The notes under the pieces are model-generated. The model made no database searches, was not told where the DNA came from, and saw only the letters and a program-made list of their open reading frames with translations. From the NCBI GenBank assembly GCA_963695855.1, contig CAVOHZ010000008.1, forward strand, positions 288,001-352,000: a stretch of 64,000 nucleotides of DNA, read 5' to 3'. Origin of the DNA: an uncultured Nitrososphaerales archaeon (GTDB lineage: Archaea > Thermoproteota > Nitrososphaeria > Nitrososphaerales > Nitrososphaeraceae). The position numbers were made by a program, and so were the translations under genes. Below, one piece after another: positions 1,335 to 26,458 of the stretch (within the stretch, counting starts at the first letter, position 1; every line of letters begins with the position of its first letter).

Positions 1335-1395
1335 CGAGCCCGTCGGAAGTAACACCAATAGAGCTGCAAAAATAAGAGTCTAATGTGATAGTATA
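1335..1395 (+). repeat. att-like site 1 (degenerate core + arm A)
   Basis: cgagcccgtcggaagt-aacaccaatagagctgcaaaaataagagtctaatgt. Confidence 0.85.
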
Positions 1396-1777
1396 ATGGA
1401 TAATATTTAAGAGATCATAGGTATTCTATCTTCAGTAAATTTGAATTCTCTAAAAACCAACTTTTTATTTATTTATTATCGTTAAACACTTATCATTATT
1501 TTGTATGTGAAAGTAATCCACCAAATGGGCGTGAAGATTCTCCATAGGTTATGATATATACTTCTTTTTTTCTCTCTGCATTAGATTGATTAAGGTTAGT
1601 GCCGCAAATATACATTATAGAGATTTTAGTGGTAATTATAATATACCATTACAGGTATTTAAGTGTTCGTATTTAAGTGTTCAAGAATGGAGAACTTTTT
1701 TGTGTTGTATTCGAATTTTGACTATAAAACGAGAATTGCAATTATTATACTTATATTCTTTAATTTCTTTTATTTAT

Positions 1778-2272
1778 AGCCTATCCCAAAATTATTCTCC
1801 TGTAGATAATAATGCTACTTGCTAATTTTACAAGACCCAGATAGTTCTCATCCTTCTTTTCATATCTTGTAAATAACTTCCTCAATCTGTTATGCCATGA
1901 ATTTGTTCTCTCTCTACAACCCATCTTCTTGCTGGATGTTTTCTACGAGATATTTGTTCTTCTCTTCTGTCTCTTATATGGGAAATATATCATCGCTTGA
2001 CAATTTCTTGTTCTATTTCTTTGGAATGATATGCTTTGTCAAGGCACAGGTTCTGTTTGTGTTTATGCTTTGGTTTGGATAATGATGGTCTTTTGATAAC
2101 CATGCTGTCAACTGTATTAATTGCAACAGTGACATCATAGTGAGTTTTTGCAGATGATATACTAGCAGATAGTGGAATACCACCATCTTTATCTGTAAGA
2201 ATCTGCCTTTTGGTTCCTAATTTACTCCTATCTGTAGGATTATGACCAGTCATCGCCCCCCTAAAGGAGATG
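1778..2272 (-). mobile_element. IS5-family transposase 3' remnant fused to the integrase 3' end
   Basis: SPLGG.MTGHNPTDRSKLGTKR, LCLDKAY, and a RWVVERTNSWHNR-type segment; frameshifted. Confidence 0.85.
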
Positions 2273-3544
2273 ATTGAATTTGTTATTCATTTCTTCTCTT
2301 ATTTGTAGAATTTCTTGAGAATGTTTTTCTTCTAATACTATTAACTTTATATCTTCTTGACCTTTAATTTCATCAAATGCTTGCGGCGTTAAAGGATAGC
2401 TACATTTGGAACAGTATTTGTTCTCTATAGCATTAACTAAATCACACCGTGGACAGTTTATGGTTGATGACCTCTTTGTTATTTCACTTGCAGAAATTAT
2501 TCCATTATGTGTTAGAATTTTCTCTTTAAGATCGTTTCCCATTCTTCTCTTTATGTATCTTGTACCCTGCCTTGAATTCATTGACCATCTTACTTTTTTC
2601 TTCAGTGCATATTCTGGCAAATAATCGCTATCAGCTGTTATAGCACTGTGTCTAATACAGTAGGGGTTCCATTTCTTTGTTTTTAACAGATATTCCAGTT
2701 TTTCGTTTTCTGCTGTATCATTAACTTCTCCATTCTTCAACAAACGAATTATTCTTTCACGTAACTGTTTCATCATTTTGTCAATATTGTCTGGAGTTAT
2801 AGGTGAACCATTGATAAGATTACAAATCAGTCTTGCATCTAGTTCATTTCTAAATGGGTGTTCATTTAACCAATCACGAACATAAGGAAACGATATAGTA
2901 AGCAAGATAGGACCTGTTCCTGTTTTAGCTTCATAGGGTATTTCACCTTCACCATAATTTTCTTTTAATCTTACATGTTTTATCTTCAAAAGTGTAATTT
3001 CATGTGGTCTTGCATCTAGGTCCCAAAGTAACGCAAGAATTGCTTTATTTCTTTTGTATGATTCATACTTGATTATGGTTAATAGATCTTCTTTTTCCCA
3101 CAACTCATTTTCAAGATAAGGGCTAATCCTTTTACTTCCTTTCCTCTTTATTCTTACAAATTCAGGTGTTCGCCAATCGGAAAATGGAACATCATCCAGA
3201 GTTTTATCCTTACAGTTGTACATCCATCTGAAAAAATATTTGATCCTGCCAAGATAGTCGTTCCATGTTGTAATCCAGCGTTTGTCTTGATCTGTCTCTA
3301 TACTTTTTATTTGTGTGTCCAAAAAGGGAAATATTTGACTTTTCTCTCTGATTTGATAAAAGGAAACAGGTGATTCAAGGAATTTACTATATGCTATGAT
3401 TGCTTTCAAATTGTTATTCTGATATCTTTCTGATGTGCCAATTCTTTTCATAAAATCATAGAACTGCAATATTAATTGCTTATTTTCTACATTGTGAACA
3501 TCCCTTTCAATATTGCTTACTGTTGTAGAGAGTTTAACTGTCAT
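2261..3544 (-). CDS. Tyrosine recombinase/integrase with C-terminal zinc ribbon (probable start MTVKL at 3544; last residues replaced by IS5 sequence)
   Basis: Catalytic R (DARPHEI), K (EAKTG), YCIRH (HxxR box variant), W (KVRWS), Y (GTRY); CPRC..CSKC ribbon. Confidence 0.9.
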   Translation of the reverse strand: MTVKLSTTVSNIERDVHNVENKQLILQFYDFMKRIGTSERYQNNNLKAIIAYSKFLESPVSFYQIREKSQIFPFLDTQIKSIETDQDKRWITTWNDYLGRIKYFFRWMYNCKDKTLDDVPFSDWRTPEFVRIKRKGSKRISPYLENELWEKEDLLTIIKYESYKRNKAILALLWDLDARPHEITLLKIKHVRLKENYGEGEIPYEAKTGTGPILLTISFPYVRDWLNEHPFRNELDARLICNLINGSPITPDNIDKMMKQLRERIIRLLKNGEVNDTAENEKLEYLLKTKKWNPYCIRHSAITADSDYLPEYALKKKVRWSMNSRQGTRYIKRRMGNDLKEKILTHNGIISASEITKRSSTINCPRCDLVNAIENKYCSKCSYPLTPQAFDEIKGQEDIKLIVLEEKHSQEILQIREEMNNKFNHLL

Positions 3545-3594
3545 TTCTTGAACCTCCTTTTTTGTATGTCTACTATACTGTCGATACTTGTATA

Positions 3595-3658
3595 TGAACC
3601 CGAATACATAACGGGCCCGTCGGGAGTAATACCGATAGCGGTGCAAAAATAAGAGTAT
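3595..3658 (+). repeat. att-like site 2, integrase-proximal
   Basis: tgaacccgaatacata-acgggcccgtcgggagt-aataccgatagcggtgcaaaaataagagt, about 50 bp upstream of the integrase ATG. Confidence 0.9.
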
Positions 3659-4375
3659 ATGAATTATGACCTAGTCTCAATTAATTAGTCTATTTTTTAC
3701 AAAGAAAATAATTATATTATTATATATAGATAGAAACTCAAGACTCTTACTCCAGAGTAGGCGTATTACTATATAGAACCTAAAATATGGATAATTGTAG
3801 ACACTAATAAACTTATTTTATTTAAATACAGAATAAAAAATAAAATTTGTGTACTTGTAAAATAATTAATTAATAAAAAGTAAATTTTAAATATTAAAAA
3901 CATGATTTGATTTTTTCCCTCAGTTCTGCTCCCAACGTTCTGATCTGCTCTGTTTTCTGTGCTTCCACAAAATTAGAAATTGATTGTAGTCATATGCCCA
4001 CTTACGCAAAATGAAGCTATAATTAATGCATTCAATGTTATTTTATTCCCTATCATTTTTTCCACTATTTTCATGCTACTTTATTGAATGCTAAATTTAG
4101 TTATTAAAAATTGATAACTTTTTAACTAATAAGTAGTCACTAAATTTCTAGTATAAATTTAACTATTAAGAACAAAATCTCTTTACTATCAAAACAAATA
4201 TTGTTTATATGGATTTGATGAAGACGAGACTATTCACAATTCATTATAAGATTTTACTATAAAATTTCTTTATATCTTTTTATAGGTAACAATAGTAATT
4301 AAATATTTTATATACCTTCTACCATGCGATAACCTACAAAATATTAAAAATGATATGTACTAAATTTGACGTACG

Positions 4376-5611
4376 TTGAAGATTATCATTAATTATCGTA
4401 TAATTAATTTACTGACAGTTATAGCTTTGTTTTCAATATTGCTATTTAGTAATAACTCACTTCTAAAAACAAATGTGTACAATGAAGAAGACAATTTAAT
4501 CAACTCAATTTTTGCTCAGAATAGAAATGCCTTTGCAGTTGGGATGGATGTTGAAGATGACGAAGAGAAATCGTTTGAGTACATATTTGATCACTTTGAT
4601 TATATAGAAGATGCTGATTCTGAAAAACAATTAGATACGAATACTAACAATAATGGAGAAGATGATATCCAGTCAATAGCAGAAAATGAAGAAACTAGAC
4701 TTTCCCATGATAATAAAGAAGATGAGGATAGATCTACATTTACATCAAAATCAACGGAGAAAGAAGAATCTGACCATAAATCAGATTTCAATTTCGTAGC
4801 TGTAGGAGATTGGGACTGTAACTCTGAAACTGAAGATACTGTGGAAAACATTTTTGACCATGACCCAGAAGTGGTGCTGGCACTAGGAGATCTTTCATAT
4901 AATGGTAGAGCAGAATGTTGGCTGGATATAATTGAACCAATATCAGACAAAACTGAAATTGCAATAGGTAATCACGAAACTGATTCATCAAAAATTTTGA
5001 GGGATTATATACATTATTTTGGATTGGAAAAACAGTACTATTCTTTTAATTATAAAACTGTTCACTTTATAGCATTATCTACAGAAATTCCATATGAAGA
5101 AGGATCACAGCAATATGAATTTGTAGTTCAGGATCTTGAAAAGTATTCTAAAGATCGATCAATTGACTGGATTGTTGCATTTTATCATAGACAAGTATAC
5201 AGTTCTGGAGGTGGCCCTGAGGACGATGATGATTTTAGGGAGACTTATCATCCATTGTTTGATAAATATAGAGTAGATCTAGCTCTGCAAGGCCATTTTC
5301 ATGCCTATGAGAGATCATATCCAATTAGTTTTAATCATGATTATGGCAATGAACCTATAGTTGAGGATTATGATCCCTCATATTACATAAATCCAAAAGG
5401 AACAATTTTTATAACTGCGGGCACAGGAGGAGCACATGGTATGAAGATCTCAGAAACTAAACCCTTTTCTGCTTTTGGATTAGACGGGGAATTTGGAATA
5501 CTAAATATCTCTGTAGAGAATAACGGAATTACATTATCAGGTTCATTTATAGAGAATAATGACGAGGAGGGTGTATATGACCAGTTTCAGATTATTAAAG
5601 ATAATAAATAA
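4376..5611 (+). CDS. Secreted calcineurin-like metallophosphoesterase (purple acid phosphatase-like)
   Basis: Signal peptide; AVGD, LGDLSY, GNHE and GHFHAYER motifs. Confidence 0.9.
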   Translation: MKIIINYRIINLLTVIALFSILLFSNNSLLKTNVYNEEDNLINSIFAQNRNAFAVGMDVEDDEEKSFEYIFDHFDYIEDADSEKQLDTNTNNNGEDDIQSIAENEETRLSHDNKEDEDRSTFTSKSTEKEESDHKSDFNFVAVGDWDCNSETEDTVENIFDHDPEVVLALGDLSYNGRAECWLDIIEPISDKTEIAIGNHETDSSKILRDYIHYFGLEKQYYSFNYKTVHFIALSTEIPYEEGSQQYEFVVQDLEKYSKDRSIDWIVAFYHRQVYSSGGGPEDDDDFRETYHPLFDKYRVDLALQGHFHAYERSYPISFNHDYGNEPIVEDYDPSYYINPKGTIFITAGTGGAHGMKISETKPFSAFGLDGEFGILNISVENNGITLSGSFIENNDEEGVYDQFQIIKDNK

Positions 5612-5904
5612 AAAAGAATTAAAAAAGAATTATAGTTACTTTTTCTACATCAATATTGAGCAGAAAATTTAAATTACAATGAATAAGCCGTCAACCGTAT
5701 GAAATATAGAATAAATTATTATGTTACTCTAGGTATCAAATTTATGGTATCGATATCTTGTTCTGCAGGAAACATTAGAAAACTATATACAGAAATCGCA
5801 TCAAGAAATTTTCCTTCATTCCATGGATTAGAAAGATACGGGGCAGATATTTGAATATCTCGCTCGGCTAAATCTCTTAATTGAACCAAACTCATCTTAC
5901 AAAA

Positions 5905-6125
5905 TTATATTTGTCCAATTATTGACAGTAGATTTTTTTCAGATTTGTCGAGTTGATATGTTTCCATTTTATTGAGGTATTCTTCATATCCTTTTAATTC
6001 TTGAAGCTTTTTTGATTGTTCAATTCCTATTACTGGTAATTCTTTATCAACCAATAATCCTATCTGGGCTAATAAAGAAGCTTGATCCCAATAGACGTAT
6101 TCATGCAATAAAGCGAAAATTTTCC
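5905..6125 (-). pseudogene. C-terminal fragment of a SnoaL/ester-cyclase-like protein, 5' part lost next to site 3
   Basis: HEYVYWDQASLLAQIGLL..LPVIGIEQ resembles the C-terminal motif of that family. Confidence 0.55.
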
Positions 6126-6130
6126 AGGTT

Positions 6131-6191
6131 ATAGTGAACTCTAGAAAAGTACTGACCCGTCGGGAGTGGAATCTTCCATGTAGTAGGGTTC
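6131..6191 (+). repeat. att-like site 3 (left arm + core + arm B)
   Basis: atagtgaactctagaaaagt-actgacccgtcgggagt-ggaatcttccatgtagtagggttc. Confidence 0.9.
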
Positions 6192-6300
6192 TACTACTAA
6201 TGTTAGCTTTTATTATTAGAAAATTGTTTTGATTGAATTAGTAATTATTTTAGCAATTTAAACAATTAAAGTATATATATTTCGGAATGACAAAAATCTC

Positions 6301-7593
6301 GTGTTTTTTATTAATTTTTTAATATTGTTCATATCTTTATTTACCATAAGTTTTTTTTATTCTTTCAATTGTCTTCTCAATATAATACATTTCTATTCTT
6401 TCTCTGTATTGGATTTTATAGTAAACAATTCAAAGTTATTGTTATCAACTAATACAGATGACCATGATTTGTTACAAAATGTAAATGCAGAAAATAATAT
6501 TGAAGATAGAAATTATAGTAGTACCAATCAAATTATTTCAATAAATAAAAATATCACTGATAATAGTAATGTTGTTATTCTTGGTGCCTGGACCCCTATA
6601 AATAATAGTCTTATTCTTCAAAATTTGAAAGGAGAAGAGCAAAAAAATGCAATATACACTCTTCTTAACCAAGGCTTTTATGAATACTACTTTGCCATGA
6701 ATAACTTTGATCATGAATATGCAAAATTAACAGAAGAATTACTAAAATCTGCAGAGAATACTAATCTAAAAATAATAGTAATTCTCCGTCCGCCTTCAGA
6801 AGGTGATTCTAATACAAATTATGACTGGAAAGGATGGATAAAATATTTTAATTCTCTTGAAAAGAAATATCCAAAATCATTTGAAGGATTTACTATAGAC
6901 GATTTTAATTGGAAAAGTACTAGAGAGGAAACAAAATTCAAATTAAATATTGATTTTATGGAATACTCTAAGCTTATTAAAGCCCTTAAAGATAAAGACA
7001 AAGATGTTAAATTTTATCCAACAATATATTTTCAAGGTAAGCGAACTGACAAAGTAGCCAATAAATATGATGATTTTACAGATGGATTAATTGTAGCCAG
7101 TGGATGCTATTACAATGTTTCTACCTTAAAAAAAGAATTTACCATATTTAAAGAAATTTTTGAAAAGCCTATTAGATATGTTGTCTATCCTATTATAACA
7201 TATAATTATTCTAGACAAGGATATAATCCTCCGACAGACCGCCTTATACAGGCTACTTTATCCATAGCATCCAATTCTGCTGATGGACTAATTATTTGGC
7301 GCGATATAGATAAGCCAGTAATACAAGAGTATTTGGATAATCAAGATGATAAAAAATATCTAGCAAAAATATCAAAGATTGAAGAATTGCAGATTAATGA
7401 TGAAAAAATAACTACAGCTAATTCTAAAAAAAAGTTATTGAATACACCAAATGCTGAGCAATATCTTAATTGTCAAGAATGGTCTAACAGATTTAATAAG
7501 GCATATGATAAATGGAAAGATTTATCTCAACAAGAAAAAGAAGAGGACAAATGGAAAAAAGAGATATTACAAATAATAAGGAAAGATAAATAA
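6301..7593 (+). CDS. Secreted hypothetical protein, possibly glycoside hydrolase-like TIM barrel
   Basis: 430 aa ORF, hydrophobic N-terminus, alternating beta/alpha pattern, GFTIDDF motif. Confidence 0.6.
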   Translation: MFFINFLILFISLFTISFFYSFNCLLNIIHFYSFSVLDFIVNNSKLLLSTNTDDHDLLQNVNAENNIEDRNYSSTNQIISINKNITDNSNVVILGAWTPINNSLILQNLKGEEQKNAIYTLLNQGFYEYYFAMNNFDHEYAKLTEELLKSAENTNLKIIVILRPPSEGDSNTNYDWKGWIKYFNSLEKKYPKSFEGFTIDDFNWKSTREETKFKLNIDFMEYSKLIKALKDKDKDVKFYPTIYFQGKRTDKVANKYDDFTDGLIVASGCYYNVSTLKKEFTIFKEIFEKPIRYVVYPIITYNYSRQGYNPPTDRLIQATLSIASNSADGLIIWRDIDKPVIQEYLDNQDDKKYLAKISKIEELQINDEKITTANSKKKLLNTPNAEQYLNCQEWSNRFNKAYDKWKDLSQQEKEEDKWKKEILQIIRKDK

Positions 7594-7690
7594 ATATAAT
7601 ACAGAAAACTAAAATTATCTAGATAGGAAGAATTTATAGTAGTTCTATTAGTCTCTAAAGCAGATTCCGCATAAATAATATTTGTCGCAC

Positions 7691-7753
7691 ATAGTGGACC
7701 TGAGAAAAGTACGGGCCCGTCGAGAGTGGATCCTTCCATGTAGTAGGGTTCAC
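7691..7753 (+). repeat. att-like site 4 (left arm + core + arm B), direct repeat of site 3
   Basis: atagtggacctgagaaaagt-acgggcccgtcgagagt-ggatccttccatgtagtagggttcac. Confidence 0.9.
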
Positions 7754-7924
7754 CCAACTTGTATATAGCTTTTATCATTAGGAACTTAAGTAAAATAATT
7801 GTACAATAACAGACTAATCTTCATTTGGTTCGATAGAATCATCTATAAATTTCAATACAATTGTTTTTCTTTTCTATCAAATATGAAATACTGTTTTATA
7901 CAACATGTGAAATAAAGCATTTTA

Positions 7925-8110
7925 TTGGAACAGAGAAGAATAGGAATAATTTTTATGGTGTTAGGCGCTGTCATGTTGGCAATTCCGTTAATTATAACTA
8001 TAACAGAGAATTCCATTCGAATATTTGTTCCAATGATTGGTTTACTATTTTTATTGTTTGGTTTTCCAATAATATTAAGTAGTAAGAAAGGCAAGAATAT
8101 AGAAAATTAG
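7925..8110 (+). CDS. Small two-TM membrane protein
   Basis: 61 aa with two hydrophobic helices, between sites 4 and 5. Confidence 0.6.
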   Translation: MEQRRIGIIFMVLGAVMLAIPLIITITENSIRIFVPMIGLLFLLFGFPIILSSKKGKNIEN

Positions 8111-8151
8111 ATAAATACAAACAAAATCTTCTACCATGATGAATATACAGA

Positions 8152-8194
8152 ATAATATCGATAGCGGTGCGAAAATAAGAGTCTAATGTATGGT
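8152..8194 (+). repeat. att-like site 5 (arm A only)
   Basis: taatatcgatagcggtgcgaaaataagagtctaatgtatggta. Confidence 0.85.
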
Positions 8195-8435
8195 ACTAAA
8201 GAAGATAATATTTAGGATTTATTTAATCGGTATTTATTATGTTAACATCTTAATTTTATTTTATTTTGTTATTTTTCATATCTAAAAATGCAGAATTGGA
8301 TAATCTCAATTCTATTAGATTTTCCTCCAATTTTAAAAAAAGATTAGACTGTATGAATTTTTCTTACTAACTAATCATAGTAACAATTAGAAAACTTGTT
8401 ATAGGTTGTTATATCATTGTAGATGTTATATTCTT

Positions 8436-9682: not shown

Positions 9683-9781
9683 ATCATTTACGTTCAACTA
9701 AATAGTCCAGATCAATAAAAACAGGATCACTGTAAATAAAATTAATGATAATGAGTGGCCCTAAATATTATTTCCTTATTA

Positions 9782-9857
9782 CTATAACATTATACTGTTA
9801 TTTTTGCACCGCTATCGGTATTACTCCCGACTGGCCCGTACTTTTCTAGGGTTCACC
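9782..9857 (-). repeat. att-like site 6 (left arm + core + arm A)
   Basis: Reverse complement gtgaaccctagaaaagt-acgggccagtcgggagt-aataccgatagcggtgcaaaaataacagtataatg. Confidence 0.9.
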
Positions 9858-10400
9858 TCATTTAGATATATTTAGTTAAAGGTAATTAGACGATTCATTA
9901 AGAGATCCGTTGAAATTCTTAAGTTACCATTTGAATTAATGGCTTATAAAATAAGGTTTAAACATATGTCTGTTGCTTTGGCCCAATCAAATAATAGGGT
10001 ATTATACCCCAAATTCTTCAAACATGAAAAATGCTTTTGCTTCCGTCTGATGTATAGAAGATTTTGTATTCTTTAACCACGTAGTGTTCTTAAATCTTTA
10101 ATTGAATTTTCAGGATATTTGAGGATGCAGAAACAGAATCTATGTCTTGACAGGGCATATCATTCCAGAGAAGTAGAACAAGAAATTGTCAAGAGAGGAT
10201 ACATTCCACATATACGACATAGAAGAGAAGAAAAGAAACTGAACAAGAAATATCCTGCAGGAAGACGGGTACTTGAGAGAACAAACTCATGGCATAACAG
10301 ATACAGGAAATTGTTTACAAGATATGAAAAGAAGGTAGAAAACTATCTTGGTCTTGTGCAATTAGCAAATTGCATAATTGTTTATAGGATGATAATTTGG
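9790..10400. repeat. About 610 bp segment with a near-identical inverted copy at about 25835-26455
   Basis: Direct sequence comparison; ORFs 10119+ and 26121- are almost identical. Confidence 0.9.
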
Positions 10401-10405: not shown

Positions 10406-10417
10406 TTCTAATTATAG

Positions 10418-12672: not shown

Positions 12673-12677
12673 AATTA

Positions 12678-13695: not shown

Positions 13696-13730
13696 TCTAG
13701 TTCTATTATTGTCTAAAACTTATGAATCGC

Positions 13731-13770
13731 TACATTAGACTCTTATTTTCGCACCGCTATCGGTGTTACT
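13731..13770 (-). repeat. att-like site 8 (arm A + 3 bp of core)
   Basis: Reverse complement agt-aacaccgatagcggtgcgaaaataagagtctaatgta. Confidence 0.9.
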
Positions 13771-13911: not shown

Positions 13912-14607
13912 TCACATAACAATTAAGCGATTAACAATTCCATATACTTGCTGATTTCCAAAATGATTTCCTGTATCTTTATCATCTGGGTCAATAGTTA
14001 TTGTATTGCCTTTAGAAATGGTTATTGATACTTCTGCATGACTCCATCTAGTTATGCCATTTATTTTAATATCAGCGGTTCCATTTATTGATAAACTGTT
14101 ATTACTATTATTATCTGATGTAGATAGAATTATCACGCCTCCATCATCTTCATTTGCACTAAAGTTTGTTATTTGATGAATATGTCCCATTGAACCATCC
14201 ATAGGCGATGCCAAAAAACTTGCTTCAAAGTTTGTTACATTTCCATTATGGACATTTAAAATCCAGTCTCCAGTTAATATTACTTTGAATGCATTTGTTA
14301 TATTGAATTTATCTTCAGGAACTGTTATAACTAAAGAGCTTATTGTTCCTATAGCAGAAAAAGTTGTGCTCCTATTGCTATTACTACTACTATTTATTAC
14401 AGATTGAGTATTTAGATTCATTTTTTGATTTGTATCTTTATCTTTTTCCATTTGAGCAAATACAATAAATGATGATTCATAATCACCATAATTGTTTCTA
14501 ATCATGGCAAATGTAACTATAGATAATGATAGCACAAGGAATATTGTCGTTATAACTTTAGTTATAGTATTGAATGATGATGACGACAATACTCTTGTTG
14601 TAAACAT
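13912..14607 (-). CDS. Secreted beta-rich hypothetical protein
   Basis: Signal/TM segment; C-terminal NHFGNQQVYG motif. Confidence 0.75.
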   Translation of the reverse strand: MFTTRVLSSSSFNTITKVITTIFLVLSLSIVTFAMIRNNYGDYESSFIVFAQMEKDKDTNQKMNLNTQSVINSSSNSNRSTTFSAIGTISSLVITVPEDKFNITNAFKVILTGDWILNVHNGNVTNFEASFLASPMDGSMGHIHQITNFSANEDDGGVIILSTSDNNSNNSLSINGTADIKINGITRWSHAEVSITISKGNTITIDPDDKDTGNHFGNQQVYGIVNRLIVM

Positions 14608-14881
14608 TATTATCGTTATTCTTAATTCTATTATAAATATCTAAAATAATTAGCTTATTATATGGTAAACTAAAGATGTAAATTTCTATTATACTTCTTA
14701 CCGTCCTTTATATTAGACTTTACCTAAGAAAAGTTATTATCCTTCTTGTTTCCTTTCTAATAAAACATGTAATTTTTCATCATTCATTATCTTTTCAAAT
14801 AAAAAAGGAACATAGAAAACAAGAAGTGACTGATAACTGATAATAAAATCTAAATACAAGATAGTAGTATCTCTACAATAA

Positions 14882-14945
14882 ACTCTTATTTTTGCACCGC
14901 TATCGGTATTACTCCCAACGGGCCCAACGTTTCCTCGGGCACTAC
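14882..14945 (-). repeat. att-like site 9
   Basis: Reverse complement gtgcccgaggaaacgt-tgggcccgttgggagt-aataccgatagcggtgcaaaaataagagt. Confidence 0.9.
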
Positions 14946-15262: not shown

Positions 15263-15317
15263 TTAACTAATTTATTACTCTAGTGATATTTTGTTACCGA
15301 ACATGGATAAGGTAACT

Positions 15318-15359
15318 GTTCAACTCCCGACTGGCCCGTAGTTTTCTACGGCCCACTAT
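15318..15359 (-). repeat. att-like site 10, retains a tRNA-like T-loop
   Basis: Plus strand gttcaactcccgactggcccgta-gttttctacggcccactat. Confidence 0.85.
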
Positions 15360-16091
15360 ATACGATAAATATTATTTATGCATCATCTGCTTTAGAGACT
15401 AATATGTTTTTAGAGTTTAAAACCGATAAGATACACAAAATTCATATAATAAATGGAGATTTATAATACTGCAATATATTATTTTATAAAAACACTCCAC
15501 AATAAAAAAAATTATTATGAATAGGAGAAAGGATTTGTCTGCTAGAATTGACAATTAAAAAACATAAGCTAGTTGGTGTAGAAACTGTCTTTTCTATATC
15601 AAGAATATTTGGAAATATGTTACTCCCATTACACTCTTTTTATTCTAAGTTTACATCTGTCTAACATTTCATCTACAGTGTCAGTATCATTTTTGTTTTA
15701 TGCATTTCATTCAATTATTTTAACTAGTTTTATGCTAAATTTTTTTATCCGGTTAAAAATAAGGATAGCATCTGTTCCATCAAAAAAACAACAATAGGAA
15801 AGAAAGAAACAGATAATTCGATATGAAAAAGAAAAGGTAAGGATTACAAACTTTGATATTGTAATTACGAATGATGTAAATTTTGATTCAAGTTAGAGCA
15901 AATATGTTAAACGTTATTATAGTAATCATTAATTGTCAAGCTTCATACGATCAATATGTTATTTTAAGACTGATAAAAACACTTATGGATTATGAAACAA
16001 AAAATTTTGATTCTATAAATAATTCCAAAATTCTAATACATAGAGAATATCTTTTTACATAATTGATAAAAATAATTTGTTTGTTTGATAA

Positions 16092-17024
16092 TTATTGACA
16101 GAATTTTCTTAGTTCTTTAACAAATTCAATAGTTTTGTTTACATCATAATTTTTTTCTGCATTCATGGCAAGAATTACTCTATCTACGCCAGATCTTTCG
16201 AGCATAGATAAATCAGAACCAATTTCATCAATTGTTTCTCCAGTCATAGGAGACCGATTACTTTTTTTTTCAGAGCTACTTCCCACAAGATAAGGAAATG
16301 TTAAAATAGTTAGATCAAAATCCTTCCTTTCTCTTGTACTTTTTTTAATCGAATCATTGAACATTTTAATGGAATTTTCAAAATATTCAAATGATCCTGC
16401 TAAGGTTCCTATATAACCATCTCCATATTTTATCATACGCTCAAACGTCTTTGGCGAGAAACCCCCAAGAAAAATTTTAGGGTGAGGTTTTTGAATAGGC
16501 TTTGGATCAATTATTGACTTCGGAATTTTGTAAAAGTCTTCATTAAATTCTACAATGTCTTCTGTCCATACCTTTTTCATAGCTTTGAGAATTTCGTTTG
16601 CTCTTTCTCCTCTTTTCTCATAAGGAATATTAGCGGCAAGATACTCATCTTTTGACCATCCAATACCAAAACCACAGATTGTCCTACCTTCAGATAAAAT
16701 GTCTATTGTAGTAAACTCTTTAGCAAGTGTTATAGGATTATGAAAAATCATATCAATAATACAAGTTCCTAAATTTACCTTTGTTGTATTAGCCGCAATA
16801 AATGCTAATGTTGTTAATGGATCTAAAACATTCTTAAAAAATTCAGGCCATTCTCTTTTATCTGGAGTCCCGGGATACGGCTGTTGGGGATTGAGAGCAT
16901 ATAGCATTCTATCATATACCCAAAGTGATTCAAATCCTTCTTGTTCTGCAAGTTGAACAAATCTAATTAGATTTTCTTTAGTAGCATTTATGCCAAATTG
17001 AGGAACAGCTAATCCTACTTTCAT
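16092..17024 (-). CDS. LLM-class F420-dependent oxidoreductase
   Basis: AEQEGFESLWVYD, LDPLTTLAFIAA, PKPIQKPHPKIFLGG. Confidence 0.9.
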   Translation of the reverse strand: MKVGLAVPQFGINATKENLIRFVQLAEQEGFESLWVYDRMLYALNPQQPYPGTPDKREWPEFFKNVLDPLTTLAFIAANTTKVNLGTCIIDMIFHNPITLAKEFTTIDILSEGRTICGFGIGWSKDEYLAANIPYEKRGERANEILKAMKKVWTEDIVEFNEDFYKIPKSIIDPKPIQKPHPKIFLGGFSPKTFERMIKYGDGYIGTLAGSFEYFENSIKMFNDSIKKSTRERKDFDLTILTFPYLVGSSSEKKSNRSPMTGETIDEIGSDLSMLERSGVDRVILAMNAEKNYDVNKTIEFVKELRKFCQ

Positions 17025-17085
17025 ATCTATTATTAATTTTTATACTATAAAGACATAATGTAATCAATATTAGTATCTATTTTTC

Positions 17086-17526
17086 TTAATTAGAATATTT
17101 CCAACTTATAGTCTTTTGAATATCAATTATAATGCAAATGTCTCCAATTCCTACCATTTTTTTATACTGAAGATATTTTTCTGACAATAGTGAATGAGCT
17201 TTTTCTATCGTATCTCTATCTTTTAACCTATTTACTATTTTTGCTTTACCTTGGATTATTAAATAAGAAAGATTACTCCAGTCTTTATCGTCATATGTAT
17301 CAATTAGAAAAGAAATATTAGGATTTTTTTGTATATTTTTTACTCTTTTTAACTGGTTTGAATTTACCCTTTTAGGTTTGTCATCTATTGGAATGAAGAT
17401 ATTATTACCATCAAATGCAAATACCACGGGTATTAGGTAAGGTTGATTAATCTCAGGATCTACTGTTGCTAATCTGGCTATTTTTGAATTATTCAAATTT
17501 TCTAATGTTTTTCTGTTTTGCATCAA
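17086..17526 (-). CDS. PPOX-class (pyridoxamine 5'-phosphate oxidase-like) probable F420-dependent enzyme
   Basis: ARLATVD, PVVF, IDDKPK, LKRVKNI..NP, DWSNL. Confidence 0.85.
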   Translation of the reverse strand: MMQNRKTLENLNNSKIARLATVDPEINQPYLIPVVFAFDGNNIFIPIDDKPKRVNSNQLKRVKNIQKNPNISFLIDTYDDKDWSNLSYLIIQGKAKIVNRLKDRDTIEKAHSLLSEKYLQYKKMVGIGDICIIIDIQKTISWKYSN

Positions 17527-17839
17527 TCTACTGCTATAGAAAAGATCTATAACTTAAATTTTTATACTTGTGATTTTTTATATGATAAAATCTTTTATCT
17601 ATAATTTAGATAGAACAACAAATAATATAAAAACATAATAGATGTTTTCCACTTGCTCCCATTAACTAAATGGAGTCCATACTTCCAAATAGGTATATTT
17701 AATATGTTACTAAAGTACTTTATATTATAAAGATTAAATGGGACCAGATAACTTAAATGGGTTCACTACTGTTGATCAGCTAGATTTGTGGGATTTGAAT
17801 GCTTCTATAAAGTGGGGATAGATATTTTCTAATATTAGT

Positions 17840-18889
17840 TGTTGTACTTACACAGATAGGTAACAGATTCACTTACCAACATGGGTAACACTTTTTATCT
17901 GCTTATTTGTTTTGATATTCTTACAACTATTTAATCTTCCTTTCATAAGAAACATTTCAGATGGTGTGTGACCATTGATTCCACCATGTTCTCTTGTTTC
18001 ATTGTATGCTTTGACAAACATGGAATATCTTCTCTTTCCTTCTTCTCTGTTGGAAATATTTTCTATTGCCAAAAATTCATTTTTGACTATCTTGTTATAT
18101 GCTTCAATTTTACCCTGTAGTTGTGGATATCTAGCAGGTATGGATTTATCTTTAATGTTGTTACGTTGTAGAAAACGTCTGAAGATTTTGGATGTAAGCT
18201 GTTTACCATTATCATGCATTATTTTGTGAGGTTTACCATTCTCTACTATGTAGTCTTCCAGTACCTGTAGTACATCTACACTTCGTTTTCTTTCAGACCA
18301 GTCACTTGTTACCTTTCTTGAACAGTCATCTTCACAACTGATAAAATAGTTCTTTTGAGTAGAATTCTCAAGGTAAAATGGTCCTAAAATGTCCATCTGT
18401 ACCATTTGATTGGGTTTTTCCATTGCAAATCTTTTGTATTTTCTATTTCTGATCTTGCATCTTAGTATGTTCAGTCCATGTCTTTTCAGTATCTTGTAGA
18501 TGGTTTTTGTACTGAAGGAGATATCATTCAGTCGTCTTAACCTGAACCTTATGCGATTGCAACCAAATCTTTTTGTTACACGTAAATCCAATATTTCCTG
18601 TTCTATCTCATTTGTTACTTTTCCAGGTTGTATATTATATGGTTTCCTACTTTTATCCCGTAAACCGTCTATTCCATTCTCAAGGTACCTGTTCTTCCAT
18701 TTGTAGTATGACTTTCTAGATGTATGATATCTATTACAGATATTAGTTACAGTATCTCCAGTCGACTCTTTCTCATGAATTAAATTAAATTTTGTTTGTA
18801 ATTCTATTTTTGTATACACTTCCTAGCAGATTAGGAAGTGTTACCTATCTCGGTAAATGAAATTGTAACCTATGTTGGTAAGTACAACA
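17840..18889 (-). mobile_element. IS481-family element, apparently intact (transposase 17869-18819)
   Basis: Ends tgttgtactta / taagtacaaca, 6-bp TSD attagt (17834-17839, 18890-18895), HTH + rve DDE domain. Confidence 0.92.
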
Positions 18890-19202
18890 ATTAGTTATTA
18901 TATTAATTCTAGTCTACTGAAGAGGATCAAATAAGAAAATGGATAAAGTGAATGAAGATGTTAATGGTGACTTAGCAGATAAACTAATTATGTTATTAGA
19001 AGACTACTAACAATACTAAGAACAAACAATATATTTTATCATATTGTCAAAGATTATAATGAAGTTTAAAAAATAATGTATGTTATTTGTACACAAAAGT
19101 ACTATTTTGCAGCAATGCTAGGACAGTAGGATCTATCCTACCAGCATCGGACATGGTGAAGTAATGAGTTGACGTGTCTGCCTATGCTCCATAGGGTTTA
19201 TT

Positions 19203-19237
19203 CTCTTATTATTGCACCGCTATCGGTGTTACTCCCG
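19203..19237 (-). repeat. att-like site 11 (arm A + part of core)
   Basis: Reverse complement cgggagt-aacaccgatagcggtgcaataataagag. Confidence 0.88.
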
Positions 19238-19289
19238 GAATAATAACAAAAACCGACATAGTCAGAGCTATAAAAGACATGAAGGAATG

Positions 19290-19421: not shown

Positions 19422-19844
19422 ATGTGTATTACCATCTAACTACAGTATAGTTAGTTTTGAATGGAGCCCTGTTTTCACCTTGTTCTAACTTGATTTCACA
19501 TATTGATACGATGTTTTCAATTAATACCATCTGATTTCTATTGTCTTTTGTAGTTTCAAGTCATTCGTGAAAAACGTGTAAAATGCTACTGTATTTCAAA
19601 AAAATTTTAAAAAAGTTCGTATTTGAACTAGTTTTCATCTCGTTGAAAGCACTATCATATATCAATTAGCATGAATATGCTGGCTCAATTCTATCGCCTG
19701 CTTGCACATTTTACATAAAGATAGTATAGCTAGTGCTAATAACTTGATATATCATATTTGTTGCCACAAAAGTATCAAAGACAGGATTTGAAAAAAATAT
19801 ACGACTCTGAACATGATACTAATGTAAAGTAAAATTCGGATAGA

Positions 19845-19935
19845 GAAATTTTCAAATATCTTGTAGCAAAAGACTCGAGTGCAAGTTATCAAAGAAACTG
19901 TACCAAAATTCTGGTAATGCTTGCAGAAATTACTA
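19845..19935 (+). pseudogene. Third integrase N-terminal remnant
   Basis: FKYLVAKDSSASYQRNCTKILVMLAE is close to the 13510 remnant. Confidence 0.65.
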
Positions 19936-20115
19936 AGAAAGATAATGCTTATGCCTATCTACATAAAAACATTGATTATTTTTATGGTATAGAAATTTAT
20001 TATATGCATTCAAACTATTATTGATCTAGTATGGTAGTTATAAGACATCTATCTTAATTTAAAATTTTACATTTTGATATTATGCTTATAATAGTAGGAG
20101 AACTAAAATAGATAT

Positions 20116-21300: not shown

Positions 21301-21505
21301 GTTTTTAGGTAGGTCTAACAGGTTCTTCTGCAGGATGTGACTCCTACTTTATAAAAGTCTAAAAAACCTCACTGATTTGTGGTCCTAACCCTTGTCTCTG
21401 GAAAACAATAGTCAACAACATAATAACGCGGTTGAAACTGAGTTTTAAGCAATGAGTCCTCCTTTAAATATTATTCTACCAGTTTGATTTGAAGGACAGA
21501 CATGT

Positions 21506-21925
21506 TTAGGATTGGGTTCTTAACTGTTCGGTCAATGAAATCATATCTACCAGATTCCAACGCTCTATGCATTTTGTATCATGAAAAGAAAATACTGTCA
21601 TCCCATTGACTTTGAATTGTTTATCGGTTGGCTTAAGATCCATAAATTCACCTTTGTGTGTGCCAGTTAGGTTGTATCTACATGCAACCTTATTTCCTTC
21701 GATAATGATATCATCAAACATAATTCCTATATCAGGAAATGCTTTCCATAGGAGATAAATGAACTGTTTAAAACCTTCCTTGTTCGCCAGAAGATTTGGA
21801 GGGAAACCATGAATTATCAAGGAGTCATCATAAAAATCAAAATAAGATGATTCTCTTTTCTGCGGATTGTTAAATGTGTCTGCCAATTTTCTCACAACTT
21901 CTCTTAAAGGCTCAAGTGATGACAT
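21506..21925 (-). CDS. SnoaL-like ester cyclase
   Basis: AFPD..EGNKVACR..GTHKGEF..PT.K motif. Confidence 0.88.
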   Translation of the reverse strand: MSSLEPLREVVRKLADTFNNPQKRESSYFDFYDDSLIIHGFPPNLLANKEGFKQFIYLLWKAFPDIGIMFDDIIIEGNKVACRYNLTGTHKGEFMDLKPTDKQFKVNGMTVFSFHDTKCIERWNLVDMISLTEQLRTQS

Positions 21926-22072
21926 TATTGAGATATTTATAGCCTTTTTTATAACTTTTTCTTTACCTTCTTTATCTGATATATTGATGACATTGCACTT
22001 TACGCTTTATTATTATGATCGTCAGATTTTTGTACTCGATATTCGTTTGTTAGAAATATAGAGAAGATTATA

Positions 22073-24092: not shown

Positions 24093-24109
24093 CGTCGGGA
24101 GTTGACCAG
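24093..24109 (+). repeat. att-like site 12 (partial core with T-loop-like side)
   Basis: cgtcgggagttgaccag versus site 10 reverse complement agtcgggagttgaacag. Confidence 0.55.
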
Positions 24110-24334: not shown

Positions 24335-24876
24335 ACCTTGCATATTGCTTTTATTATCATAAACTTATTTTAAAATTGTTTTTGAAATTCAAATGAACGA
24401 AATTATCGGCTATATTTGGGCTTGGCTTAATTCTTATTATAGCAGTAGTCAATAATATAATAAAATTAGTTTTTGATTACTTAAAATTACTTAATTTCAA
24501 ATCCAATTTTAGAATTAAAATAACTACTATTAAGTATCAATTATATAATATCAAATAATATTTGCTCATCTCATTCACATAAACAAAAAAGTTTATAATT
24601 CAAAATACAAAGAGGAAGCATTATAATAACTTATACACTTCTGCTATTACCTTTTGGTTGAAGGTGTACTGTATCTAATTTGTTCCTTTAATAATACGAA
24701 TTATCGTATCTTAAATTACTAGAATTATTTTAATTTCCAACGTTATTATTAATAGTAACAAGAATTAAAAAAATTTATTAATATCAAATTATTCGTTATA
24801 GCATAAAAATGTGATTAAGAGTAAGATATTTTTTTATAACTAATTGCAATATATTAATTTATAAGATTCAAAGAGA

Positions 24877-25647
24877 TTATCTGAGAGGGTTATGACGCTG
24901 CGCCCAGTCAATTATTGAACCATCATATACTCTTACATTATGGAAGCCAGCCTGCTTTAATTGCAAGTATTTATGAGAAGCTCTAGCACCAGAGTGACAA
25001 TAGCATATAACCTCCTTGTCATTAGTAATTCCATTATGCTCAAAATCCTTTTGTAATTCTTCTTTACTTTTGAGTATAGTAATACCATTACTATCTAGTC
25101 CTTCTTCCCAACTATGTAATATAGAACCTGGAATTCTAGCCTGCATATGTTCCTGAGGAGTTCTTGAATCAACAATTACGGTCTTGGTATCATTTTGTTT
25201 CGTTTTAATCATCTCTTCATCTGCTCTGATTGTAGAATTTGGTTTAGATATAAATTGAGTATGATTAATAGGTGGAACAGCACGAGTAATTGGCAACCCT
25301 GCTTTCTGCCATGTATTGAATCCAATATCTAAGAGCTTTGTATTTGTATGACCATGATACATCAAAGTCCAGACTATTCTTGCTGCTGAAGGATCCATAT
25401 ATTCACCATAAACTACAACTGTTTTAGTGTCATCAATACCAAGATCACCAAAAATCTTTTCGGCAGTTGGACTATCTACTACCAAGTTTGCCCCGTTATT
25501 AGCAAGTGAAATTATACGCTCAACTCCAAGGACTCTTGCATTTTTAATGTGTCCAAACCTATATGACAGATTTCCCCGGCCATCTATAACTACCAATTCA
25601 GGATCATCTAGATGTGCTACGAGCCATTTATTATCTACAGTTACCAT
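24877..25647 (-). CDS. Tandem rhodanese / thiosulfate sulfurtransferase
   Basis: GHIKNA, YCHSGARAS, YDGSIIDW. Confidence 0.92.
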   Translation of the reverse strand: MVTVDNKWLVAHLDDPELVVIDGRGNLSYRFGHIKNARVLGVERIISLANNGANLVVDSPTAEKIFGDLGIDDTKTVVVYGEYMDPSAARIVWTLMYHGHTNTKLLDIGFNTWQKAGLPITRAVPPINHTQFISKPNSTIRADEEMIKTKQNDTKTVIVDSRTPQEHMQARIPGSILHSWEEGLDSNGITILKSKEELQKDFEHNGITNDKEVICYCHSGARASHKYLQLKQAGFHNVRVYDGSIIDWAQRHNPLR

Positions 25648-25833
25648 ATTATATAGTATAACTATCTAATCTATATTTGATTAGTTTTCTTTAACATCAT
25701 CTTTTTTATTTTTTATAAATTTGCATAGGATCTGTACGAGATATAAAGTAGAATTCATGCTTACATCTTAGGATAGACATACTACGAAGTAGCAGAATGG
25801 TAGTGATGTTGTTAATAAGTAATTGCCTTAGAG

Positions 25834-26121
25834 CTATCTCAAAATTATCATCCTATAAACAATTATGCTATTTCCTAATTGCACAAGACCAAGATACTTT
25901 TCTACCTTCTTTTCATATCTTGTAAACAATTTCCTGTATCTGTTATGCCATGAGTTTGTTCTCTCAAGTACCCGTCTTCCTGCAGGATATTTCTTGTTCA
26001 GTTTCTTTTCTTCTCGTCTATGGCGTATATGTGGAATGTATCCTCTCTTGACAATTTCTTGTTCTACTTCTCTGGAATGATATGCCCTGTCAAGACATAG
26101 ATTCTGTTTCTGCATCCTCAA
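25834..26121 (-). mobile_element. IS5-family transposase C-terminal fragment (copy of 10119)
   Basis: Near-identical protein sequence. Confidence 0.85.
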
Positions 26122-26382
26122 ATATCCTGAAAATTCAATTAAAGATTTAAGAACACTACGTGGTTAAAGAATACAAAATCTTCTATACATCAGACGGAAG
26201 CAAAAGCATTTTTCATGTTTGAAGAATTTGGGGTATAATACCCTATTATTTGATTGGGCCAAAGCAACAGACATATGTTTAGACCGAATTTTATAAGTCA
26301 TTAATTCAAATGCTAACTTAAGAATTTCAACGGATCTCTTAATGAATCGTCTAATTACCTTAACTAAATATATCTAAATGAG

Positions 26383-26458
26383 GTGAACCCAAGGAAAGTG
26401 CGGGCACGTCGGGAGTAATACCGATAGCGGTGCAAAAATAAGAGTCTAATGTATGGTA
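26383..26458 (+). repeat. att-like site 13 (left arm + core + arm A)
   Basis: gtgaacccaaggaaagt-gcgggcacgtcgggagt-aataccgatagcggtgcaaaaataagagtctaatgtatggta. Confidence 0.92.

Follow-up and report, generated by a model that had tools for sequence, protein, structure and literature searches.

The window, a 64,000-nt stretch of DNA from an uncultured Nitrososphaerales archaeon, carries copies of a repeated site that part small groups of unrelated genes, together with a tyrosine integrase (Table 1). An nhmmer profile of the 102-nt site, scanned over window positions 1-28000, recovered 11 copies, five of them complete (at 3589, 9763, 14851, 15272 and 26378) and the other six consisting of an arm alone or of a core with a differing arm. 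The motif is real, and its recurrence far exceeds chance: the 17-nt core has eight window matches at up to three mismatches versus 0.01 expected, and a 28-nt piece of the right arm seven versus 0.00 expected. A first-pass annotation had counted 13 copies and described same-orientation sites bracketing unrelated genes. Eleven of these copies stand, but not all in one orientation, with six on the plus and five on the minus strand; the copy placed at 24093 is a 9-nt half core that the profile did not match, and position 13371 holds nothing convincing as a site. At the place of site 5, the orthologous unit of a close relative (G075) carries a complete site.

Table 1. Sites, integrase, cargo genes and insertion sequence in the window
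Feature	Coordinates	Strand	Description
Site 1	1326..1408	+	Degenerate core ACGAGCCCGTCGGAAGT, 2 mismatches; type-A arm; third-type left arm ..ATATCAGC
Tyrosine integrase	2261..3544	-	427 aa, full length; C-terminal CxxC...CxxC zinc ribbon
Site 2, complete	3589..3686	+	Integrase-side left arm TATATGAACCC-GAATACATA; perfect core 3611-3627; type-A arm 3628-3662
Calcineurin-like metallophosphoesterase, cargo	4376..5611	+	Pfam Metallophos (3.9e-12), Metallophos_C
Site 3	6130..6197	+	Common left arm GTGAAC..AGAAAAGT; core with 2 mismatches; type-B right arm GGAATCTTCCATGTAGTAGGGTTC
430-aa protein, cargo	6301..7593	+	Without Pfam family
Site 4	7690..7761	+	Common left arm; core with 1 mismatch; type-B arm
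Site 5	8153..8213	+	Type-A arm alone, without core
Site 6, complete	9763..9861	-	Orientation opposite to sites 1-5
Site 7	13725..13770	-	Type-A arm alone
231-aa protein, cargo	13912..14607	-	Without Pfam or PHROG family
Site 8, complete	14851..14945	-	Core with 3 mismatches
Site 9, complete	15272..15361	-	Common left arm; core with 1 mismatch; third right arm, type C, TGAACAGTTACC..
Luciferase-like monooxygenase and PNPOx-like protein, cargo	16092..17526	-	Monooxygenase 16092-17024, PNPOx-like 17086-17526 (Pfam)
IS481-type IS	17833..18890	-	Transposase 17869-18819; Pfam rve/HTH_32; inside a unit
Site 10	19198..19237	-	Partial type-A arm and 8 core bases CCGGGAGT
Relic	24093..24107	+	9-nt half core GTCGGGAGT, then TGA.., resembling the tRNA side of the core; direct reading
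Site 11, complete	26378..26474	+	Core with 2 mismatches

The integrase begins at an ATG 45 nt from site 2 and reads away from it, where a spacing of about 50 bp had been given earlier, and site 2 is an attP-like junction. Pfam returned no family for the protein at E ≤ 0.01, and a PDB profile search matched its zinc ribbon only. PHROG integrase families gave E values of 4.1e-7 and 1.2e-5, archaeal XerA of NCBIfam gave 7e-5 (22.5 bits, below the cut-off of 220), and the nearest Atlas clusters were all PF00589 archaeal integrases (score 0.99). End-to-end alignment with 18 homologues showed R179, K207, R298, H299, W320 and Y330 to be invariant in all 19 sequences, with Y295 at the H/Y position. 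The protein thus carries the tyrosine recombinase pattern R...K...H/Y-x-x-R...H/W...Y, in which we take R179, K207, Y295-x-x-R298, W320 and Y330 to be the catalytic set on the strength of the familiar motif; the AlphaFold (AF2) model is poor in the catalytic part (residues 139-250). Across 79 loci of the integrase family, a tRNA gene of one of several kinds lies just upstream on the same strand in 27, and the site is confined to a subclade at least 75% identical to the window's enzyme. Wherever such an integrase retains its N-terminus at loci elsewhere, the site lies just upstream (8/8). The proposed tie between site and integrase clade is borne out, and att specificity appears to follow the clade.

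The origin of the core, which the first-pass annotation missed when it proposed an att site, lies in a tRNA gene. The genome's tRNA-Lys(UUU) gene, which is located on the same contig (C8) 285 kb upstream of the window, has the 17-nt core as its 3′ end. The core comprises the last three T-loop bases, the 3′ strands of the T-stem and the acceptor stem, the discriminator base and one base more. At C8:2806-2822 the core, as its reverse complement, runs on into a gene that ARAGORN with introns calls at C8:2734-2821 and labels 'Stop (tta) with intron'; from the loop CUUUUAA and a 14-nt intron we read it as a predicted tRNA-Lys(UUU). The type-C arm of site 9 has five more bases in common with the T-loop side of the tRNA. 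An integrase paralogue, 80% identical to that of the window, starts 71 nt past the tRNA gene. Because the core matches the tRNA 3′ end and the paralogue directly follows the tRNA, we regard the repeated site as a putative double-stranded att site, flanked by conserved element-side arms and used by a tyrosine integrase that targets a tRNA gene, and the system would accordingly rest on conventional tRNA-type attP/attB recombination.

These observations bear on two other origins of the repeats, a classical integron (IntI with folded attC) and the ends of an IS or MITE. The layout of an integrase reading away from a proximal site, followed by gene/site/gene, is that of an integron, but the site does not resemble attC, as had already been suspected. 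Single-stranded folds of three sites on both strands were no better than those of shuffled sequences (z = -0.31 to -1.34, with 18 to 68 of 200 shuffles folding at least as well), and the consensus on reading contains no RYYYAAC...GTTRRRY pair; we therefore reject attC identity. Throughout this genome, neighbouring sites lie less than 12 kb apart in 37 cases (median gap 3032 nt); in 33 of these the two sites point the same way, and the sites are therefore not terminal inverted repeats. Their common flank is the tRNA-derived core rather than a variable target duplication, and IS or MITE ends are rejected too. With no Rfam family at gathering score anywhere in the window and with relatives of the integrase adjoining tRNA genes, either origin is extremely improbable.

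The site extends well beyond its core. A left arm of about 25 nt exists in three types, and a right arm of about 35 nt, with a roughly 45-nt extension, in types A, B and C. All array junctions read left arm, core, right arm, as expected where integration recurs at a single att site. Right arm A is found with every left arm type (i, ii and iii), and type i is in addition found with B and C; the arms thus reassort around a constant core. Sites adjacent to an integrase have the same left arm type in 11 of 11 cases, and the common left arm, seen 30 times with the core, never adjoins an integrase. At the ten tRNA-Lys(UUU) loci of the genus with downstream sequence, the common left arm abuts the true tRNA gene in three, touching it in three species, the integrase arm does so in three and the third arm type in two.

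The site recurs in all seven other genomes of the genus in our draw and in 5 of 73 genomes from 17 other genera of the family. Records of the relatives are named Ca. Nitrosocosmicus, and the host is a soil ammonia-oxidising archaeon. This genome holds 58 sites at E ≤ 1e-3: 22 complete, 25 with right arm only, six with core and right arm, and five with left arm and core. Eight array loci from four relatives, covering 128.7 kb, contain 36 sites, all co-oriented within their contigs (36/36). The array in the window, by comparison, is of mixed orientation, partly decayed, invaded by IS elements and 285 kb from the tRNA.

Alternatively, the right arm could be mainly a regulatory or expression module, with a palindrome (ACCG-ATAG-CGGT) and a TATA-like ATATTTA box, that accompanies variable-region genes and is only secondarily linked to the att core. 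Allowing one mismatch, 72 of 92 arm-bearing sites have the box; in 51 of them it falls at arm positions +51 to +55, whose columns are the best conserved. The arm is also well conserved in the 25 of 58 sites that lack a core, so that its conservation is uncoupled from an intact crossover site, and in two genomes (G012 and G016) several sites are followed, after 45-53 nt, by the start of a gene for a ~175-aa predicted secreted protein of one family, at the place where a leaderless mRNA driven by the TATA box would begin. However, a co-oriented ORF of at least 60 aa starts within 260 nt of only 21 of the 92 arm-bearing sites, genes after the sites are of mixed orientation, and the integrase-adjacent attP-like junctions combine this arm with both the tRNA-derived core and the integrase-side arm. 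We consider a primarily regulatory arm improbable.

The cargo consists of ordinary accessory genes. The phosphoesterase noted initially between sites 2 and 3 is confirmed by its Pfam match, and a Pfam tally over 92 array ORFs includes OsmC, SDRs, hydrolases, regulators, a permease, a photolyase domain and IS transposases. IS copies abound in the region. The IS481-type element has at least six further copies in the genome at 99-100% identity, an empty site in one metagenome contig (side 114), and no counterpart in the luciferase-like/PNPOx-like unit of G075; it is no part of the att system.

That arrays part unrelated cargo in an order that differs among relatives, as the first-pass annotation had anticipated, is evident in G075, G013 and G015. 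G075 has the same units at 87-96% identity in a different order, with the unit right of site 11 coming directly after the 8150-8957 unit, and at three inspected G075 junctions the partner switches at ..GGGAGT|AATACC.., the boundary of core and arm. Sites also enclose the 430-aa unit in four relatives (G013 and G015 among them), where its neighbours differ, and the unit at 13722-14866 is 93-95% identical in three relatives. Assembled contigs of public metagenome runs, matched at 90% likeness, contain joints at sites (6197->7762, 3656->6203, 3653->7771, 14860->19216 and, backward, 14871->13732), which are weak, being from short Logan contigs with sides of just 21-32 nt where given.

Two explanations of such arrays deserve the most weight. 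In one, the units are remnants of integrase-bearing tRNA-Lys integrants whose integrases and backbones were deleted; their order would reflect homologous recombination and IS activity, and they would now be immobile. For archaeal elements, the available portions of PMC8371274 and PMC6563490 describe both integration in tandem and the subsequent loss of integrases, and the loss of the core from 25 sites and the abundance of IS copies agree with decay. One array of G012 opens with an N-terminal integrase remnant (blastn), and arrays of this genome contain or adjoin short integrase fragments (C8:205459-205617 and C3:370438-370587), indicating that some integrase decay has happened. Furthermore, the near identity of the repeated arms means that homologous recombination inside them would leave breakpoints that look like those of site-specific exchange. 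Other evidence points away from decay. The common left arm is never the one beside an integrase; tblastn (E < 1e-5) found neither an intact integrase nor a remnant in the 128.7 kb of relatives' arrays; and the 25 commonest of 97 families among the 92 array ORFs include no virus or plasmid hallmark and no element backbone gene. About 100 nt of arm is kept across unrelated cargo and in three other genera. Types A, B and C share the 17-nt core alone, which makes their exchange by homologous recombination hard. We judge an immobile, decayed array unlikely, though well ahead of a regulatory arm.

The first-pass annotation had offered a capture system or a decayed array of small elements, and the data tend to favour units that are non-autonomous and are moved in trans. 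Our main reading, to which we assign a probability of roughly 0.55, is that the site is the att of a tRNA-targeting integrase at which small non-autonomous units accrete, probably moved in trans. Most units, with one to a few accessory genes, a median length of ~3 kb and no integrase, would be non-autonomous elements that keep a working attP. A few resident integrases would integrate, excise and shuffle them in trans; tblastn finds two cognate full-length integrases in this genome, one adjoining the tRNA and one in the window, which may play this role. Strand exchange would probably take place in or beside CGGGAGT, at the boundary of core and right arm. Arrays distant from the tRNA, including that of the window, could have arisen by recombination at secondary sites or between inverted sites and have been further scrambled by IS elements. 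Less easily fitted to this reading are cargo genes that lie behind a type-A arm in one genome and a type-B arm in another, the mixed orientation of genes inside units, and the coreless sites that keep a conserved arm. In function the system would be a gene-accretion platform like the integron; in mechanism we infer lambda-type double-stranded att recombination.

Bacterial CIMEs, mobilisable genomic islands and ICE accretion provide precedents in which recombinase-less, att-flanked units use the integrase of a neighbouring or co-resident element and accrete in tandem at a tRNA or other att site, usually as one or two large islands per site. The units here are likewise att-flanked, without a recombinase of their own and arranged in tandem, but they are very small, number tens per genome and occur genus-wide in an archaeon. 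Elements integrated at archaeal tRNA genes can also be trapped and broken up, with att repeats and cargo left behind as in the present arrays, and 'gene capture' by integrase-mediated insertion in Sulfolobus chromosomes was reportedly described by She et al. in 2001 and 2004. SSV-type integrases split their own gene upon integration, whereas the integrase gene here is intact beside the site and att lies outside the ORF.

Also comparable are the cryptic integrated elements and tandem integrations of Thaumarchaeota, for which the available text of Krupovic et al. 2019 (PMC6563490) gives short att sites with a median of 17 bp, the length found here. Shared features, as far as that text goes, are a tyrosine integrase adjoining a tRNA gene, the use of intron-bearing tRNA genes and arrays formed by re-use of one site; the 19-kb tRNA-proximal island of this genome, with type I R-M, ApeA-HEPN, RadA-like and TBP genes, fits these elements. 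Tandem integration at tRNA-type att sites is known in archaea from the same portions of PMC6563490 and PMC8371274. The former, in which the word Nitrosocosmicus is absent from the available text, describes tandem pairs there, versus dozens of integrase-less units of 1-5 kb with ~100-nt conserved arms here.

Classical integrons are reported in archaeal MAGs (PMC9668308; bioRxiv 10.1101/2022.02.06.479319, in the parts available). Like bacterial integrons and CALINs, the present system has a tyrosine recombinase at one end reading away from the adjacent site, long co-oriented site arrays that part one to a few unrelated accessory genes, many arrays without a nearby integrase, and unit order that varies between relatives. 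Unlike them, it has a double-stranded att with a tRNA-Lys(UUU) 3′-end core in place of a folded single-stranded attC, an array that can begin at the tRNA gene itself, and an integrase of the tRNA-targeting archaeal family. The co-oriented promoterless genes under a platform promoter that mark integrons are replaced by units of mixed gene orientation that seem to bring their own TATA-like box. We tentatively suggest, at somewhat less than even odds, that the genus Ca. Nitrosocosmicus has independently evolved an integron analogue, in which a tRNA-Lys(UUU)-specific integrase would capture, store, excise and reshuffle a genus-wide pool of tiny integrase-less units, each with a ~100-nt attP and TATA-like box, in arrays of tens at the tRNA and at secondary sites. 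With dozens of site copies in arrays parting small integrase-less units, the genus carries what resembles an integron built of ordinary tRNA-type att sites.

The recurrent motif described by the first-pass annotation is real and lies far above chance expectation: in the window, the 17-nt core ACGGGCCCGTCGGGAGT has eight matches at no more than three mismatches (0.01 expected), and a 28-nt segment taken from the right arm matches seven times (0.00 expected). An nhmmer profile of 102 nt, built from 14 copies (positions 1–25 left arm, 26–42 core, 43–102 right arm), matched 11 copies in window positions 1–28000, of which only five are complete. These account for 11 of the 13 copies originally claimed; of the other two, 24093 is no more than a half core of 9 nt, and nothing convincing was found at 13371. 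Nor is the orientation uniform, as had been stated, since six sites lie on the forward strand and five on the reverse. The reported lack of an attC-type hairpin was borne out, with single-strand folds no better than those of shuffled sequence (z −0.31 to −1.34); the site is thus not attC-like. Rfam at gathering thresholds returned no family for the entire window.

Sites, arm types, arrays and repeats. Coordinates refer to the window unless a contig of the source genome (C3, C8, C10) is named.
Feature	Location or sequence	Strand	Remarks
Sites, forward	1326, 3589, 6130, 7690, 8153, 26378	+	nhmmer profile
Sites, reverse	9763, 13725, 14851, 15272, 19198	−	nhmmer profile
Right arm, type A	AATACCGATAGCGGTGCAAAAATAAGAGTCTAATG		
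Right arm, type B	GGAATCTTCCATGTAGTAGGGTTC		
Right arm, type C	TGAACAGTTACC..		five more bases common with tRNA
Left arm, type i	GTGAACCC or GTGGGCCCT plus AGAAAAGT		
Left arm, type ii	TATATGAACCC plus GAATACATA		
Left arm, type iii	..AGCACTT plus ATATCAGC		
Array	C8:2.8–45 kb		starts at tRNA
Array	C8:177–202 kb		
Array	C8:258–315 kb		includes the window
Array	C3:68–79 kb		
Array	C10:913–946 kb		
Further sites	a few smaller places in the source genome		
Integrase-bearing island (L097)	C8:2822–21797		19 kb
IS481-type element	17833–18890		1057 bp
IS481-type transposase	17869–18819	−	
Direct duplication, 300 nt	10942–11241 and 11403–11702		perfect; spacing 461 nt
F420-dependent oxidoreductase-like gene	10768–11418		second ORF 11490–11873
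Direct repeats, ~380 nt	9184–9563 and 12166–12548		75–80% identical; 2.98 kb apart
Multi-copy families	30406–31570, 34044–34770, 38726–39749		75–93% identity
Transposase-family fragment (PHROG 4716)	1990–2253	−	
Transposase-family fragment (PHROG 4716)	10119–10445	+	
Transposase-family fragment (PHROG 4716)	25834–26121	−	

Site copies were aligned throughout the repeat-rich source genome (3.55 Mb in 11 contigs, ~31% G+C). The copy at C8:2806–2822, on the contig that includes the window (C8:288001–352000), continues into a tRNA and not into the usual right arm. ARAGORN, with introns allowed, placed this tRNA at C8:2734–2821 under the label 'Stop (tta), 14-nt intron'; from its loop CUUUUAA plus the intron we read it as tRNA-Lys(UUU), and no second tRNA-Lys(UUU) gene was called in the genome. 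The reverse complement of the core corresponds to the last three T-loop bases, the 3′ T-stem, the 3′ acceptor strand, the discriminator base and one further base. The site is a conventional att site, with a tRNA-derived core between element-side arms. ARAGORN without introns found no tRNA in the window, which leaves the window array without an anchoring tRNA. Three of 12 fetched loci stop only a few bases away from the tRNA-Lys(UUU) gene, and contig ends this close to its 3′ end in several metagenome-assembled genomes of the genus (L104, L111 and contig C71 of the relative G013) fit assembly breaks caused by a repeated att site.

The integrase beside site 2 is 427 residues long, and its ATG at position 3544 lies 45 nt from the site, in agreement with the ~50 bp noted previously. 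The protein is a divergent tyrosine recombinase. Pfam assigned no family at E ≤ 0.01, PHROG integrase families matched at 4e-7 and 1e-5, and the archaeal XerA model scored 7e-5, under the model cut-off; all atlas neighbours are PF00589 archaeal integrases. R179, K207, R298, H299, W320 and Y330 are invariant across 19 homologues. An AlphaFold2 model from 19 sequences has a mean pLDDT of 63.6, with values below 50 over residues 139–250, and PDB searches with the sequence alone and with its profile returned nothing beyond weak matches between the zinc ribbon and ribosomal proteins. An 80% identical paralogue at C8:2901–4172 (tblastn) has its ATG 9 nt further upstream, at C8:2892, 71 nt after tRNA-Lys(UUU). 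Another paralogue, 61% identical, directly follows tRNA-Arg(tcg), and a further 61% identical copy lies on contig C2; the genome has only two cognate full-length integrases.

The integrase family set comprises 79 loci in Nitrososphaeraceae records, several of them named Ca. Nitrosocosmicus, Nitrosopolaris or Nitrososphaera, and 27 of these loci have a tRNA gene (Lys, Arg, Pro or Ala) just upstream on the same strand. A site with the tRNA-Lys core is found upstream only in the subclade that shares at least 75% identity with the window integrase, where it precedes every one of the eight loci with the N-terminus present; the first-pass annotation had proposed such linkage as a check. Neither an exact core/arm junction nor a relative of the integrase was detected among IMG/VR viral contigs, and hence no free virus or plasmid form was found in that collection.

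Searches at E ≤ 1e-3 recovered 58 sites in the source genome: 22 complete, 25 with the right arm only, six with core and right arm, and five with left arm and core. Thirty-seven gaps between neighbours are shorter than 12 kb (median 3032 nt), and the sites that bound them share an orientation in 33 of the 37 pairs. In one draw, the site was present in all seven other genomes of the genus and in 5 of 73 genomes from 17 other genera of the family. Eight array loci from four relatives' genomes (128.7 kb) contain 36 sites, co-oriented within every contig. No tRNA-Lys was found in these loci, nor any integrase by tblastn at E < 1e-5; blastn detected a remnant of an integrase N-terminus at the start of the array in the relative G012. 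Overall, we regard it as shown (roughly 0.9) that the sites serve a tRNA-Lys(UUU)-specific integrase as att sites and that repeated use of the site builds the arrays.

Arm types pair freely around the constant core. Left arm type ii occurs at 11 of 11 integrase-adjacent sites, and none of the 30 type i instances with a core lies beside an integrase, in a sample biased by the many loci fetched for their integrase. Downstream of the true tRNA-Lys(UUU) in loci of the genus, we found type ii plus integrase three times, type i three times, type iii twice and other sequence twice, and two more contigs stop at the tRNA; in some species, therefore, the real attB is joined to the ends of units that lack an integrase. 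Right-arm types A and B both lead into a common extension with a TATA-like box. In a minor alternative, the arm would act mainly as a promoter or regulatory element. Of 92 arm-bearing sites, 72 carry an ATATTTA box, but a co-oriented ORF lies within 260 nt of just 21, and on this count a general role as promoter of the unit's first gene was rejected. Mixed gene layout likewise led us to discard a promoter for the gene on the opposite side. In arrays of G012 (L010 and L011, contig C16) and of another relative, G016 (L012, contig C32), many members of a ~175-aa family start 45–53 nt after a site, ~25 nt past the TATA-like box, the spacing expected if their mRNAs are leaderless.

Unit order differs among relatives, the second check that had been suggested. 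Compared with 18 genomes of the genus, window positions 1–20000 match piecewise, unit by unit, with ends close to sites. The unit encoding a 430-aa protein is site-flanked in G013, where its neighbour is a homologue of window 21475–21965, and in G015 it adjoins a homologue of C3:78793. The relative G075 carries units of the source genome at 87–96% identity in a different order; there, unit 8150–8957 is followed directly by the unit that begins at window 26411, whereas the source genome has ~17.4 kb between them, holding all five reverse-strand sites of the window. In a genome-wide screen for site-bounded duplicated units, the matches listed are dominated by IS and gene-family repeats but include a 425-bp unit (7728–8153) that recurs at C8:22976 and C10:925588. 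Among the public runs listed, none was of RNA. Logan contigs from four soil and cave metagenomes, at 90% likeness and interpreted only where they cover the window, join at sites (6197→7762, skipping the 430-aa unit; 3656→6203; 3653→7771; 14860→19216; and backward, 14871→13732), these joints being weak, with sides of 21–32 nt where given. As a background for divergence, window positions 27001–47000 were compared with five relatives and gave no more than short mosaic matches. The entire window is mosaic, with no colinear match above 2.7 kb to five relatives.

Three junctions set side by side between the source genome and G075 switch partners at ..GGGAGT|AATACC.., and arm-only sites tend to retain GGGAGT or the half core GTCGGGAGT, with a gradient towards GGGAGT that is qualitative because the classes are partly mis-anchored. 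From these switches and retained ends, strand exchange would appear to occur at the core/right-arm boundary. Homologous recombination within near-identical arm repeats would be expected to produce the same breakpoint appearance. It forms part of the main rival explanation, decay of complete elements combined with homologous recombination and IS activity, which we regard as less likely. We infer that the majority of units are non-autonomous and are mobilised in trans, given the site-to-integrase ratio, a distinct arm class never linked to an integrase yet joined to the tRNA, arms conserved across unrelated cargo and across genera, the absence of backbone genes, and the shuffled unit order.

Insertion sequences and other repeats are also present. 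The IS481-type element has at least six other copies in the genome at 99–100% identity, is absent from the orthologous unit in G075, and has a solid empty site (17833→18890, side 114) in a metagenome contig; by these comparisons it looks recently active. The 300-nt duplication, inside or beside the F420-dependent oxidoreductase-like gene, is absent from one near-identical metagenome contig (X1) and reflects either tandem duplication in recent times or an error of assembly. The ~380-nt repeats are bridged by several metagenome contigs, with skips of ~3010 nt; the small reverse-strand ORFs that these repeats cover belong to one family, represented in the G012 array as well. The three multi-copy families, with tens of copies in the relatives G010 and G012, presumably represent insertion sequences or one gene family in repeated copies. 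One PHROG 4716 fragment lies directly behind the integrase and another just left of site 11.

Window cargo includes a metallophosphoesterase, consistent with the phosphoesterase annotated at first pass, 430-aa and 231-aa proteins without family, the F420-dependent oxidoreductase-like gene, a luciferase-like monooxygenase with a PNPOx-like protein, an aldo/keto reductase, two transposase fragments and the IS481-type element. A Pfam tally of 92 ORFs (80 aa or longer) taken from the window and relatives' arrays yields 97 families, the commonest being wHTH regulators, DDE transposases, DUF899, SDRs, hydrolases, response regulators, cyclases, AhpC, VIT1, a photolyase domain and a permease; the 25 commonest include no hallmark of a virus or plasmid. 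The ~175-aa family numbers 16 proteins across the G012 and G016 arrays, and its N-terminal hydrophobic segment predicts secretion. The L097 island beside tRNA-Lys(UUU) carries type I R-M, a YgjP-like peptidase, an ApeA-like HEPN protein, a RadA/KaiC-like ATPase, a methyltransferase and an extra TBP paralogue, and looks like a defence island.

If units do move in trans, the arrays would constitute an archaeal cassette-capture platform based on ordinary tRNA-type att recombination and not on attC folding. Integron-like gene storage could then evolve from a common integrase, and one explanation would be at hand for the large, variable accessory genome of the genus. The compact integrase/att pair is also a candidate genetic tool for ammonia-oxidising archaea, for which we know of no such tool. 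We found no published description of such arrays in main-text literature on Thaumarchaeota and Nitrosocosmicus integrated elements and on archaeal integrons; passages of two genome papers on Nitrosocosmicus go no further than naming integrases and integrase-flanked islands, without analysis. The arrays resemble integrons and CALINs in layout but differ in that their sites fail the attC folding test, and they are therefore not members of that family. The system belongs instead to the tRNA-targeting integrative elements of Thaumarchaeota, whose att sites have a median length of 17 bp according to PMC6563490, and tandem integrations at tRNA-type sites occur in archaea, as described in PMC6563490 and PMC8371274.
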